64,000 bases of DNA from an uncultured delta proteobacterium (GTDB lineage: Bacteria > Desulfobacterota > BSN033 > UBA1163), in the NCBI GenBank assembly GCA_963827685.1, contig CAWHBU010000004.1, positions 672,001 through 736,000 on the forward strand, read 5' to 3'. The position numbers and the translations under genes are program-made. The stretch's first letter is position 1. Every line of letters begins with the position of its first letter. The notes under the pieces are model-generated. The model had not been told where the DNA came from, did not search any database, and saw nothing but the letters and a program-made list of their open reading frames with translations. Of this stretch, positions 84 through 13,111 are shown piece after piece.

Positions 84-758
84 CTATTCGATGGCCTTGT
101 GGTAATCAAGGGGAGTAGATTTTTTGCTTTTACATCTTTTAATTAAATTATTTCGTAATGCCTCCGGTTTCTTTTCTTCTTCGAACAGTTCCTCTCTTGC
201 CCACTGCCGAGATGTCGGGAGGAAAAACCACTGTTCGATCTTCTCTTCTAAAAAATTGAGGAACTTTCTTTTGGAGATATGAAATCGACCCGTTTCAATT
301 TCGACGCCTTTTCGAGAATAACGCCATAATTTATCGGCATCCTTAACAATCCGGTCGTTCTGGGAGATAGGTCTCTTCCTCGTATCGTGACCCCGGATGA
401 TTAGACATATCTCCTTTATTTTCTGAGGAGGGTAATGCGAGTCTTTTAAAATAGCCTTTGCAATCTCGGCTCCTTCTACTTCGTGGACCTTTACCAATTG
501 GGGATTGGATGGATTTGGACCAAAGGCAGTTAGTTGCAGATCTTCAGGAATGGTCTTCCAGCCCACATCGTGGAGGAGGACAGCCGGGATGACCACATTC
601 TCATCGCCTTTCTCAGATTGCAGAAGTTTCAAGGCATAGCGAAGCGCAATTCGAGTGTGGATGAGATTCTTTCGGGTTCGAAGGAAGGGTTTGGCTTTTT
701 TAAAAATCTTCTGATGGATCGGTTTTATCAGCACTGGTAAGAAATGATCAGTGACCAA
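84..758 (-). CDS. HD-domain phosphohydrolase (CreD-like)
   Basis: Motifs H..LLHDVGW..HEVEG..GHDT..DADKLWR; lies downstream of the ppsA/ppsB-like kinases. Start codon uncertain. Confidence 0.8.
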   Translation of the reverse strand: MVTDHFLPVLIKPIHQKIFKKAKPFLRTRKNLIHTRIALRYALKLLQSEKGDENVVIPAVLLHDVGWKTIPEDLQLTAFGPNPSNPQLVKVHEVEGAEIAKAILKDSHYPPQKIKEICLIIRGHDTRKRPISQNDRIVKDADKLWRYSRKGVEIETGRFHISKRKFLNFLEEKIEQWFFLPTSRQWAREELFEEEKKPEALRNNLIKRCKSKKSTPLDYHKAIE

Positions 759-780
759 TTCTCATTGGTCAATTCTCAAT

Positions 781-845
781 TTTTAATTCTTAACTTTTGA
801 CTTTTAACTTTTAACTTTTAACTTTTAACTTTTAACTTTTAACTT
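781..845. repeat. Tandem heptamer repeat (TTTTAAC)n
   Basis: About 9 near-perfect copies in the intergenic space. Confidence 0.9.
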
Positions 846-846
846 C

Positions 847-1506
847 CTAAAACCCTTTCATCATTTTTCCAAGAATATAAGGTAATTCAATCCGTCCTGT
901 TGGAGCGAGGATACGGCTGCTGTACTCAGTCACATAAGTGTAGATCAATACCTTGGTGATCCGTTTATATTCATCACTGTCAAGGGCTTTGGCAATATCG
1001 ACAATGTTGGTCGCGGTCCCTTCTGCAACGATAAGAGGACCAGGCCCCACCACCACATGCCATCCTCCTGTCATCTTGATCCCCATTTTTTCCATGGTGG
1101 GAAGATGATCGTTCTTTACAAAATTCGCGTATTCATCTTCTTTTCCAGGGATGATATTGAAATATTGGTTAAATTTCCATACCCTTAATTGAATATTGTA
1201 CTTATCCATTTTCACCCTGCCCGTGGGTTTAAGAATCCTGCTACAATAGTTGAGGACATAACGCTGGATCTGGGCCGTTACCTTCTCATACTCTTCTGTT
1301 TCCATGGCCTTTTGAAGTTTTTGTAGCGAATCCACTGTCCCGACCGAAATGACCCTGGGACCCTCCCCAACGACCACATGGAATCCTCCTACCGGATTGA
1401 TGCCAATCTTTTTCATGGTCGGAATGTAATGATTAATGGCAAACTGTGTGTATTCTTCTTCTTTCCCCGGGATGATATCCCAGTGTTGATTAAACAGAAA
1501 GATCAT
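847..1506 (-). CDS. Tandem NIPSNAP/dimeric alpha-beta-barrel-like protein
   Basis: Internal duplication (FNQHWDIIPGKEEEY..GGFHVVVGEGP / FNQYFNIIPGKEDEY..GGWHVVVGPGP). Start moved to ATG 1506 after GGAGGAG; the longer track ORF runs through a MITE. Confidence 0.7.
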   Translation of the reverse strand: MIFLFNQHWDIIPGKEEEYTQFAINHYIPTMKKIGINPVGGFHVVVGEGPRVISVGTVDSLQKLQKAMETEEYEKVTAQIQRYVLNYCSRILKPTGRVKMDKYNIQLRVWKFNQYFNIIPGKEDEYANFVKNDHLPTMEKMGIKMTGGWHVVVGPGPLIVAEGTATNIVDIAKALDSDEYKRITKVLIYTYVTEYSSRILAPTGRIELPYILGKMMKGF

Positions 1507-11234: not shown

Positions 11235-11250
11235 GAGATTTCCTCCTTTT

Positions 11251-11484
11251 CTATTTCTTCTTCATCATTAACGAAAGGGCGTAATAGAGGATGGAGGGTT
11301 TAAAGAGGAGCTTGATGAAGTTCCTCAGGTCCGCTCCTTCCAAGGTGGCAGTAATAACCCAGTGGATGGGTTCGGTGGACTCGATTTTCAGTTTCAGGGT
11401 TTCCGCTCCTTCTGGATCTTTAAAGAGTTGAGTAAAGGATGCAATCATGGTGGTCTGGCCCAAACCTGTCGAATTGACTTTCAT
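11251..11484 (-). CDS. Small hypothetical protein (77 aa) between the two flavoproteins
   Basis: AGGAGG then ATG at 11484 (MKVNSTGLGQTT..); tightly packed in the operon. Confidence 0.7.
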   Translation of the reverse strand: MKVNSTGLGQTTMIASFTQLFKDPEGAETLKLKIESTEPIHWVITATLEGADLRNFIKLLFKPSILYYALSLMMKKK

Positions 11485-11494
11485 GATGAACCTC

Positions 11495-13111
11495 CTATAG
11501 CAGACCGTTTGCTTTCGCCTTGGTGACAATCTCAGGTTCTTTCCACCATTTTTGGATCCCCAGGTCCTGAGCGATTCGGTTGGCAGCGTTATAACCTGCA
11601 CCATAGGTCACTAACCCTCCGGGGAAGGTGGAAGCTCCACAAATGTAAAGATTTTTAATCGGCGTGGCATATTGAGAACAGAGTTCGTTTGGCCTCAAGT
11701 ATCCCATCTGAAGAGGATAGTAACCTCCTTGCTTAATGGATCCTTCCACCATGTCTGCAAATTTATTTTCGATGTCCAGTGGAGAGGCAATATAGGTCCA
11801 GAGAATATTATCCTCCGTCATATTAGGTGCGTGCTTCTTAAGTTTATCGATCAATCCTTTGGCATGTTCTTGGCGGATCTTATACCACCTATCAGGGCCT
11901 CCCTCCTTTAGACGGTAGGGTGCATGTTCTGATATTAAACCGGTGTGTCTCCCTGGAGGTGCTTCTGAGGGATCGAAAATGGTTGGAAAGCAGCAGTTGA
12001 ACCCGGATGGCTTGAGTTCTCCATTTTTTAAGGCTTTAAAATGATCGATCAGATTCTCTTCCGTCTCAAATCCGAGAACATAAATAAAAGCTTTATTTAA
12101 ATCGGGATTCGAAGCTGCAGCAGCAAATTGGGGTACATTAAAAAGCGCAAGGTGGATATCGAAGAGGGACCACTTCTCCCATTTCCAGTCCTTCGTCCGC
12201 GTGACAAGATCTTTTGGGAGATCCTTCTCCCCGATATACTTGAGAAACGTTTGATAGGGGTCGATGCTGGAGGCAACAAACTTGGTAGCTGTGTAAACCG
12301 TTCCATCATCTAATTCAATCCCTTTTGCCGTTCCATTTTCCACGATGATTCTCTTGATGATCTGACTTCCTAAGATCATTCCTCCATGACGATAAAGAAA
12401 TTTAGACATCAAGTTGGCCATATGATGAGAGCCTCCCACGCAGAGCCGATAGTTAGAAGCTCGATTGATCATGAGTGGAACCAGGTAACCCAGCCCTTCC
12501 AGATCATAATCCAATCCCCACAGACAGGTGGCATAGAGCATTAGCGTCCTGATTTGATTATTTTCGAAAATACTATGCACGATATCGATTGGTTTCTTTT
12601 CAGAAAGGGCACTGATTTCTTGACCAAGAGGACTGGAATGGAGTTTCACGACCTGTTCGAAGGCTGGCTTGGCCATATCGTAAGTAGCGGGTCCCAAGAA
12701 GGCATCTACATATTCCTTAAACCGTTTATAGGTATCCCGATAGGCATCGGCATCTTTCTTAGAGAATTGAGCAAATGAAGCACATGTTTTTTCCACATCC
12801 GAATAGATGCAAAGGCTACGGCCATCTGCGAAAGGCATCGCCATGACCAAATCGGGATGAATATATTGGAGATCATAAGTTTTATCCAGGTCGAGATCAG
12901 GGAATACTGGGGCATAATCCACCATGGGATGGTAGATCGCATGGGTATTGTGAATAAACCCGGGGATCGTGACCATCTCCGAGCAAAGGCCCCCTCCCAT
13001 TTCGTATCTCTTTTCTAAGATCAGGATCTTTAGCCCTGCTTTGGAAAGGTAACAACCTAAAGTGAGTCCATTGGGCCCACCACCAATGATAATGCCATCG
13101 TATTGGGGCAT
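11495..13111 (-). CDS. Phytoene-dehydrogenase-like FAD-dependent oxidoreductase (paralog A)
   Basis: [49 protein letters not shown]. Confidence 0.85.

Follow-up and report, generated by a model that had tools for sequence, protein, structure and literature searches.

A candidate oxygen-independent operon for the oxidation of alkyl-substituted phenols in an uncultured delta proteobacterium

Gene content and conservation of the operon

The window analyzed here, a stretch of 64,000 nucleotides from the genome of an uncultured delta proteobacterium (assembly GCA_963827685.1, contig CAWHBU010000004.1, positions 672,001 to 736,000), carries at positions 84-13111 a run of eleven same-direction genes on the minus strand that may form a catabolic operon for substituted phenols (Table 1). 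Pfam and NCBIfam scans found in these genes the domains that an earlier note, made from the sequence alone, had predicted: two flavoproteins (FlavA and FlavB) with a gene for a protein of 77 amino acids (aa) between them, a short-chain dehydrogenase/reductase (SDR), a molybdenum (Mo) enzyme, a DUF89 protein, the two subunits of a dikinase (PpsA-like and PpsB-like), ABM and NIPSNAP-like proteins, and an HD-domain protein. An LpdD-like gene that had been counted as part of the same run lies outside of it, since its complete copy (143 aa) sits after the HD gene at C4:671583-672014 of the genome and only its first 14 bases reach the window; unrelated plus-strand genes follow to its left. Neither the gene list nor Pfam revealed a P450, ferredoxin, or reductase gene in the run, and a scan for promoters and terminators gave counts no better than on shuffled sequence (22 versus 17.1 and 14 versus 17.7).

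A scan of one genome per species yielded 42 loci, all of them in metagenome-assembled genomes (MAGs) whose host labels are Thermodesulfobacteriota (Syntrophaceae, Syntrophorhabdus, and Desulfomonile) and Dehalococcoidia. The evaluable set was defined by FlavA proteins of at least 60% identity (35/42 loci), of which 22 extend at least 9.5 kb downstream, and part of the gene absences in these 22 loci stem from the limited length of the flanks covered. All 22 encode the 77-aa protein, FlavB, the SDR, both dikinase subunits, and either a Mo- or a tungsten (W)-dependent aldehyde oxidoreductase beside FlavA, and a divergent LysR gene is present in 20 of them. Other components that the earlier note had listed turned out to be variable, with ABM in 20/22, NIPSNAP in 16/22, DUF89 in 8/22, and LpdD in 0/22 loci (one metagenome locus, L071, has it); HD is found in 13/22 loci and either HD or DUF89 in 18/22. 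This arrangement is far beyond chance, and the co-occurrence elsewhere on which the earlier note had made its reading depend is seen in all evaluable loci, in a Chloroflexota genome, and on many metagenome contigs.

The Chloroflexota genome (G080) was the one with a FlavB at 68% identity among 301 sampled genomes of this phylum, and its contig C58 carries a compact cluster of eight genes in altered order (L047:1482-15066). The encoded proteins share 61% (FlavA), 51% (small gene), 68% (FlavB), 59% (SDR), 56% (PpsA-like), 44% (PpsB-like), and 41% (HD) identity with those of the window, while the aldehyde enzyme is a W-dependent aldehyde oxidoreductase (58%). No ABM, NIPSNAP, or UbiD gene was found in this cluster, for which around 5 kb upstream and 16 kb downstream are annotated. 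Contigs that carry the cluster span 42-71% G+C. In metagenomes, at least 597 stretches matched and at least 583 of them were relatives, of which 80 were kept for counting.

Table 1. Features of the operon and its surroundings in the window
Feature	Position	Strand	Description
LpdD-like gene, first 14 bases	1-14	-	PF21758; remainder left of the window
HD-domain phosphohydrolase	84-758	-	Pfam HD, 48.9 bits; candidate aryl-phosphate phosphatase
NIPSNAP-like protein	847-1506	-	Double alpha/beta-barrel protein (Pfam)
ABM-domain protein	1631-1951	-	Dimeric alpha/beta barrel (Pfam)
PpsB-like dikinase subunit	2035-3021	-	ATP-grasp; PPDK_N, 363.8 bits
PpsA-like dikinase subunit	3090-4775	-	Substrate-binding part and PEP-utilizers phosphohistidine swivel domain
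DUF89/ARMT1-like protein	4964-5866	-	Metal-dependent phosphatase, accessory; PF01937, 152.8 bits
Mo enzyme	5876-8515	-	Aldehyde oxidoreductase of MOP-type architecture; two 2Fe-2S domains and MoCoBD, no FAD domain
SDR	8751-9503	-	Pfam adh_short_C2, 205 bits; candidate benzyl-type alcohol dehydrogenase
FlavB	9570-11234	-	554 aa, CtmB-like flavoprotein; likely substrate-oxidizing subunit
77-aa open reading frame	11251-11484	-	Gene always located between those of FlavA and FlavB; may encode a third subunit, an assembly factor, or an anchor
FlavA	11495-13111	-	538 aa, CrtI/phytoene-desaturase family (COG1233-type), CtmA-like
ISNCY-family insertion sequence	13187-14727	-	NF033594, 370 bits
LysR-type regulator	14957-15901	+	Divergent (Pfam)
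Neighboring phenol-type cluster	15909-26121		LpdD chimera, UbiX, UPF0261, aryl-CoA ligase, UbiD, LysR, PpsA2/PpsB2

The enzymes and their variants among relatives

FlavA and FlavB are adjacent paralogues (29.6% identical) that resemble solved phytoene desaturases only distantly. They share with CtmAB of Castellaniella defragrans and the delta24-steroid desaturase (delta24-SD) of Sterolibacterium denitrificans the organization as neighboring COG1233 paralogues of around 540-565 aa with 26-30% identity to each other, as well as, in FlavA, an N-terminal sequence of the form G-F-x-x-N-T-H-A. CtmA and CtmB are described as 27% identical, encoded by 565 and 549 codons, and followed by the small hypothetical genes ctmC and ctmD (PMC4109377), while the subunits of delta24-SD are 26% identical to each other (PMC11061730) and are reported to have 34% and 38% identity to CtmA/CtmB. 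Without using O2, these enzymes oxidize a carbon that neighbors a pi system, in the case of CtmAB an allylic methyl group of limonene (PMC4109377), and the same would apply to the operon. The family motif G-F-L/R-X-N/S-T/L-H-A is located near the N terminus, and its His carries covalent flavin mononucleotide in both subunits (PMC11061730). FlavA and all its orthologues read PGFIHNTHA here, with Ile at the third position of the motif and with the His that is flavinylated in CtmAB and delta24-SD. The corresponding sequence of FlavB is PGFIQNTCAH, in which Cys takes the place of this His, and this holds for both clades and across phyla; among FlavB-like relatives, Cys or His alternate at this site. 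The N-terminal motif of both proteins would be compatible with a flavin attachment site. Differences from CtmAB include this Cys in FlavB, the 77-aa gene between the subunits, the lack of CtmEF-type ferredoxin/reductase genes, and a context that is aromatic and includes a kinase rather than being terpenoid- or steroid-related as for CtmAB and delta24-SD. The top 120 matches of FlavB are all MAG proteins with generic labels, and a plasmid collection gave no match above 28% identity. A flavoprotein of anaerobic benzene degradation (PMC13416013) was considered as a relative and set aside, as it is described as belonging to the VAO/PCMH/glycolate-oxidase type and thus to another family.

The 77-aa protein has no Pfam or NCBIfam family match, and its homologues in a protein atlas fall only into clusters without a name; its N terminus MKVNSTGLG is invariant among orthologues. 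Its AlphaFold2 model (pLDDT 79.1) found no PDB fold match at an E-value of 0.001 or better, and a predicted complex with FlavA (score 0.02, mark 0.32) speaks neither for nor against binding. Because a homologue (30% identity, E 1e-9) follows a FlavA homologue in a CoA-ester context in Dehalococcoidia, the 77-aa protein is by its genomic association a partner of the FlavA type beyond the pathway considered here. The Dehalococcoidia (L035:223-21253 and genome G001) have the FlavA homologue and small open reading frame (ORF) near SCP-x-type thiolases, ChsH2-like OB-fold proteins, and MaoC hydratases, and this Dehalococcoidia genome encodes nine CtmAB-like paralogues. Such a context points to a different, CoA-ester-based pathway for the same type of enzyme.

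Among the 80 metagenome loci, 43 have the small gene together with FlavB (type I), and 14 have a lone FlavB-like gene followed directly by the genes for electron-transfer flavoprotein (ETF) beta and alpha (type II, including L091, L093-L097, L099, L100, L104-L106, L110, and L115; example L096:7-13354). No locus of the 80 has both sets, and neither FlavA nor the 77-aa gene was ever found in the 14 type II clusters. The latter carry HD and SDR genes beside a PpsAB-type kinase pair and often also UbiD, a HAD gene, and UbiX. In those that are at least 12 kb long (n=8), both kinase genes are always present, an NAD(P)-dependent aldehyde dehydrogenase in 7/8, the SDR in 5/8, and UbiD in 4/8. Their kinase is of the canonical PpsA2/B2 type in some loci (L091, L093, L096, L097, and L099) and of the PpsA-like type of our operon, with 64-65% identity, in others (L100, L106, and L110). 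Since FlavB-like proteins thus occur without FlavA and beside ETF, FlavB is probably the substrate-oxidizing subunit, and FlavA together with the 77-aa protein would probably take the place of ETF in electron transfer. The earlier note had assigned methyl oxidation to the flavoprotein pair as a whole; two CtmAB-type genes are indeed present, but the sister clusters suggest FlavB alone as the subunit that acts on the substrate.

For the kinase, the PEP-utilizers and PPDK_N domains are distributed over two genes, as in two-component dikinases of the PpsAB/CreHI type, and the substrate domain resembles that of rifampin phosphotransferase. PpsA-like aligns with residues 562-867 of the latter (rifampin-binding and swivel parts; E 2.4e-26) and retains the catalytic Ser-His of the phosphohistidine site that is named for CreH and PpsA (PMC12167813). 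The combination of an ATP-grasp part with a substrate-binding/swivel part is shared with PpsAB, HpeHI/AcvAB, and rifampin phosphotransferase. Unlike PpsAB, the operon has no gene for a CBS-type PpsC, and its substrate-binding subunit is shorter (561 versus 639 aa) and shares no more than 25% identity with this genome's canonical PpsA2. With 240.8 bits, it fails the cut-off of 578 bits of NF006153 (phenylphosphate synthase PpsA) that PpsA2 passes with 883.8 bits; PpsB-like and PpsB2 are 48% identical. At four other loci (L009, L013, L066, and L111), the kinase pair next to the flavoproteins is a remoter paralogue (PpsA-like with 47-48% identity, order B then A), and some of these contigs have a second FlavB-like/SDR set. 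These divergent kinase pairs and second sets suggest that related modules form a family whose members probably serve different phenols.

The best PDB matches of the Mo enzyme are the aldehyde oxidoreductases MOP/MOD of Desulfovibrio (PDB 1dgj/1sij and 1vlb), which align over its full length with an E-value of 6e-176, compared to around 1e-100 for xanthine dehydrogenases and 4-hydroxybenzoyl-CoA reductase. It also shares their architecture of two 2Fe-2S domains and a Mo domain without FAD, while its score of 825.7 bits for NF045668 stays under the equivalog cut-off of 1100. Across relatives, the aldehyde enzyme belongs to one of three unrelated families, i.e., MOP-type Mo enzymes, W-dependent enzymes (AFOR), or NAD(P)-dependent aldehyde dehydrogenases, and the step from aldehyde to acid thus appears to be conserved. 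Mo enzymes are present in 14/22 and W enzymes in 10/22 evaluable loci (both in two), and the gene may follow that of the SDR, close the operon, or lie upstream. The phosphatase varies as well and may be HD, DUF89 (152.8 bits in our operon versus a gathering threshold of 25, with NCBIfam equivalogs far under their cut-offs), or possibly HAD, as suggested by a HAD-like gene in metagenome locus L073. HAD genes beside UbiD in the sister clusters were not counted as pathway phosphatases and may, as we presume, encode PpcD-type carboxylase subunits. The SDR, the aldehyde enzyme, and HD/DUF89 are encoded together with the kinase and would be functional analogues of CreG, CreC, and CreD.

Regulators and genomic neighborhood

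Directly upstream of the compact Chloroflexota cluster lies a two-component system of a histidine kinase with XylR_N and V4R domains and an AraC-type response regulator. Among PDB structures, this sensor is best matched by DmpR/CapR, MopR, and PoxR, all of which sense phenol (E 3e-39 to 5e-36), and in an alignment to MopR (5kbe) it has kept His106 and Trp134 but has Gly and Cys at the positions of Phe132 and Tyr176. A regulator of XylR_N-V4R-GGDEF_2-PucR HTH architecture in metagenome locus L073 has the same four residues and is located directly upstream of genes for the W enzyme, FlavA, the small protein, FlavB, the SDR, the kinase pair, and the HAD-like protein. In MopR, His106 and Trp134 are described as anchoring the phenol OH (PMC9556785), while XylR has Tyr at the position of His106 and the substitution H106Y turns MopR toward benzenes (bioRxiv 10.1101/2021.01.17.427014). 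Gly and Cys at the other two positions would suggest a roomier pocket and thus a substituted phenol as effector. The window itself has no XylR_N/V4R sensor.

Around 75 bp upstream of the FlavA start, in the divergent promoter region between LysR and FlavA, the genome carries a 1541-bp ISNCY copy (transposase ORF 13373-14674). The insertion is recent as judged by six further full-length copies in the genome that are 100% identical to it (one more partial copy is 99.9% identical), and in relatives the flanks of the insertion sequence (IS) are contiguous and the LysR-FlavA intergenic region is short.

Beyond LysR follows a phenol-type cluster whose UbiD passes the phenylphosphate carboxylase beta model TIGR02724 (650.8 over 468.95). 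This linkage is found elsewhere, too: Six Desulfomonile-like loci (L016, L017, L019, and L021-L023) have the series PpsA2-PpsB2-UbiD-CoA ligase-UPF0261-CBS protein directly upstream of the operon, and in the close clade UbiD-PpcC-UbiD-UbiX precedes it at three to four loci. Several details of this region and of the rest of the genome are side observations. The genome carries one intact LpdD-like gene, the one next to HD, along with an LpdD/UPF0261_C chimera at 15909-16643; the intact one possibly works for UbiD. A UPF0261 gene is split into overlapping ORFs at 27795-28640 (N-terminal domain and start of the C-terminal one) and 27422-27898 (the rest), probably by a frameshift or an assembly error (27422-28640). 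After PpsB2, an ORF of 387 aa (26196-27359) matches no Pfam or NCBIfam family and has a 70% identical homologue in metagenome locus L128, where a FlavB-like/SDR pair lies nearby. Elsewhere in this genome, a second CtmAB-like pair (C4:311620-314810; L129:7620-10810) shares 32% identity with FlavA and 28% with FlavB and adjoins genes for an SDR, a CoA-transferase of family III, and two ABC transporters of the branched-chain type, with no kinase in the annotated 18 kb; an additional, weak CtmAB-like pair is found at C6:294584-301740. Finally, a multihaem cytochrome and an MtrB/PioB-type outer-membrane porin (C4:665006-667975; L043:11006-13975) are encoded around 4 kb left of the window, which suggests a capacity for extracellular electron transfer that might take up high-potential electrons from methyl hydroxylation.

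A proposed pathway and its alternatives

From gene content and comparative genomics, we propose that the operon may be a catabolic module for methyl- (or otherwise alkyl-) substituted phenols in strict anaerobes and an O2-independent counterpart of the Cre pathway, a reading toward which the evidence leans by a small measure. The dikinase would start by phosphorylating the phenolic OH with ATP via its phosphohistidine swivel domain, and the CtmAB-family flavoenzyme would then convert the side-chain methyl group into an alcohol with water as oxygen donor, FlavB oxidizing the substrate while FlavA and the 77-aa protein replace the ETF of the sister clusters. Subsequently, the SDR would form the aldehyde, the MOP-type Mo enzyme would form the carboxylate, and HD (plus DUF89 in this genome) would remove the phosphate to release a hydroxybenzoate that can enter the aryl-CoA ligase of the adjoining phenol cluster. 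p-Cresol is the simplest candidate because its conversion to 4-hydroxybenzoate would converge with the product of phenol carboxylation by the adjoining cluster, though that p-cresol itself is the substrate appears rather unlikely to us. The phosphorylate-oxidize-dephosphorylate logic that the earlier note had put forward gains support because an aldehyde enzyme is always present, a phosphatase accompanies the kinase, and phenol-type sensors lie beside two relatives; the substrate, the order of steps, and the flavoprotein chemistry are parts of it that we could only deduce. A kinase and a phosphatase in one operon, with an oxidation cascade acting between them, would suggest a protective-group logic as in CreHI...CreD and HpeHI-HpeCBA-HpeD, and a simple phenol would be the likely substrate because sister clusters pair a canonical PpsA2/PpsB2-type kinase with the same set of FlavB, aldehyde dehydrogenase, HD, and SDR.

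To our knowledge, two routes of anaerobic cresol activation are known: One uses p-cresol methylhydroxylase (PCMH), a flavocytochrome that forms a quinone methide, and the other one is fumarate addition by a glycyl radical enzyme. They would share with our proposal the presumed class of substrates as well as the final product (4-hydroxybenzoate, free or as CoA ester), but the operon encodes neither a VAO/PCMH-family flavocytochrome nor a glycyl radical enzyme and would place an ATP-dependent phosphorylation before oxidation. The closest parallel is the Cre pathway of Corynebacterium glutamicum, reportedly described by Du et al. in 2016. Its enzymes are CreHI, CreJEF, CreG, and CreC as well as CreD (PMC8796525), and it likewise involves a PpsAB-type dikinase acting on a phenol, the sequence from methyl group to alcohol, aldehyde, and acid, and a phosphohydrolase at the end. 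However, where Cre has the P450 CreJ with its redox partners CreEF for the methyl group, the operon has a CtmAB-type pair, an SDR, and a Mo/W enzyme without any O2-dependent enzyme, and its hosts are strict anaerobes. The Hpe/Acv systems for acetovanillone and 4-hydroxyacetophenone also phosphorylate, modify the side chain on the phosphate ester only, and dephosphorylate (PMC9618137), but they use a biotin carboxylase at the side chain, and the reported nearest relative of their phosphatase HpeD is NagD of E. coli (PMC9618137), whereas the operon has an oxidation cascade with HD and DUF89.

Several points weigh against our proposal. A phosphate ester makes the abstraction of a hydride from a benzylic methyl group harder than in a free phenol, and the order of steps is therefore uncertain. 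FlavA and FlavB are assigned to the CtmAB family by a motif from the literature, their size, their occurrence as a pair, and similarity at the COG level. In FlavB, Cys replaces the flavinylated His, and the characterized members of this family act on allylic carbons of terpenoids and steroids, with one of them being a desaturase (PMC11061730). Close homologues of the operon proteins are all MAG proteins with generic annotation, and no enzyme of the cluster or close relative of one has been characterized. FlavA homologues of Dehalococcoidia (53% identity) are found among CoA-transferases, thiolases, and acyl-CoA dehydrogenases. XylR_N/V4R sensors lie beside only two of roughly 130 loci, L047 and L073, and most loci have a LysR regulator that is uninformative on the effector. 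HD or DUF89 is found in no more than 18 of the 22 loci, and while some of these are cut, three (L027-L029) have room and yet no HD. The operon encodes no electron acceptor. Finally, the IS that separates the operon from its LysR partner may have uncoupled the two, which makes expression in this particular genome uncertain.

One alternative is that the flavoenzyme acts on the free phenol via a quinone methide like PCMH, while kinase and phosphatase trap or scavenge a volatile phenol present at low concentration or feed phenylphosphate to the neighboring UbiD carboxylase. A free para-OH eases benzylic oxidation as a matter of general chemistry, the operon is linked to UbiD clusters in this genome and elsewhere, FlavA carries the covalent-flavin motif, and HpeHI has been described as a scavenging system with a sub-micromolar Km (PMC12167813). 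Yet if no step lay between the kinase and the phosphatase of one operon, the two would amount to a futile cycle, the compact Chloroflexota cluster unites kinase, HD, flavoproteins, SDR, and W enzyme without UbiD in the annotated stretch, and the side-chain enzymes of Cre and Hpe are described as accepting the phosphate ester only (PMC9618137), so that we regard this alternative as improbable. An aromatizing route, i.e., from cyclohexanol over cyclohexanone to a phenol that is then phosphorylated and carboxylated, was considered and rejected: It needs neither an aldehyde enzyme nor a phosphatase, while an aldehyde enzyme is present in 22/22 loci. We further consider it quite improbable that the phosphorylated group is not a phenolic OH but an aromatic amine (toluidine), a hydroxy-N-heterocycle, or a terpenoid/steroid-like alcohol with phosphate as leaving group. 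An amine would be converted as in phenylphosphoamidate formation and an alcohol as in the ATP-dependent steroid side-chain chemistry of Sterolibacterium. Desulfatiglans is reported to phosphorylate aniline, the dikinase family also phosphorylates rifampin, the characterized flavoprotein relatives are reported to use limonene and sterols, and the distance of PpsA-like from PpsA2 and its score for NF006153 fit such a substrate. This is opposed by the phenol-type sensors with His at the OH-anchoring position beside two relatives, by sister clusters in which the same downstream enzymes accompany a kinase of the canonical phenol type, by the linkage to a UbiD of the phenylphosphate carboxylase type, and by the lack of CoA-ester or beta-oxidation genes in the operon.

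Similarly low odds apply to the view that the flavoenzyme is a delta24-SD-like desaturase or a hydroxylase for longer side chains as in 4-ethyl-, 4-propyl-, or 4-propenylphenols of the isoeugenol type, with a phenylpropenoid or phenylacetic-type acid as product. The aldehyde enzyme found at every evaluable locus requires a primary alcohol, so that a terminal methyl group must be oxidized, whereas hydroxylation at the CH2 of an ethylphenol would lead to a ketone; a hydroxybenzoate product would agree with, but is not proven by, the aryl-CoA ligase and the phenol cluster next to the operon. On the other hand, the family contains both a hydroxylase and a desaturase (PMC11061730), the limonene methyl group oxidized by CtmAB is an allylic one, and Gly/Cys at the Phe132/Tyr176 positions of MopR in the sensor pockets would suit a bulkier phenol. 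That the genes are merely neighbors in a chance or regulatory cluster without a common pathway can hardly be believed: Apart from the variability of ABM, NIPSNAP, DUF89, and LpdD nothing specific speaks for it, and the core is found in 22/22 loci, is reordered in another phylum, and occurs on contigs across the entire range of G+C contents given above.

The earlier note knew of no described operon with this combination of genes, and we found none in the searchable literature either. Phenylphosphate synthase together with phytoene, or phytoene dehydrogenase together with anaerobic cresol, did not appear in this literature, with subscription journals and supplements outside its scope; by titles and abstracts, articles on limonene dehydrogenase gave no link to a phenol kinase, those on cresol, phenylphosphate synthase, and metagenomes did not describe the operon, and another search led only to articles on the toxicity of tricresyl phosphate. 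What appears to be new here is thus a Cre-like logic that would be carried out with anaerobic enzymes. Going beyond this operon, we would tentatively suggest a third, widespread O2-independent strategy for cresols and alkylphenols that could consist of phospho-protection, water hydroxylation by CtmAB-family enzymes (with electrons leaving via the paralogue and 77-aa subunit or via ETF), interchangeable Mo-, W-, or NAD-dependent aldehyde oxidation, and dephosphorylation.

Sources of cresols and alkylphenols are lignin, the fermentation of tyrosine, and wastes of coal or petrochemical origin; these compounds are toxic and common in anoxic sediments, peat, and digesters. MAGs labelled Syntrophorhabdus carry the genes described here, and S. 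aromaticivorans of this genus is reported to grow on p-cresol (PMC10989887). If our proposal is true, the operon could explain how syntrophs and sulfate reducers use p-cresol in peat, aquifers, and digesters, and it would extend the limonene dehydrogenase family to aromatics as the first aromatic role of CtmAB-type enzymes. A route that depends on a kinase and on a flavin hydroxylase using water would be a new enzyme logic, might provide O2-free biocatalysts for selective benzylic oxidation, and would give a function to hundreds of metagenome genes annotated as "phytoene dehydrogenase-like" and "PEP-utilizing". The compact eight-gene form of Chloroflexota makes this hypothesis directly testable by heterologous expression.

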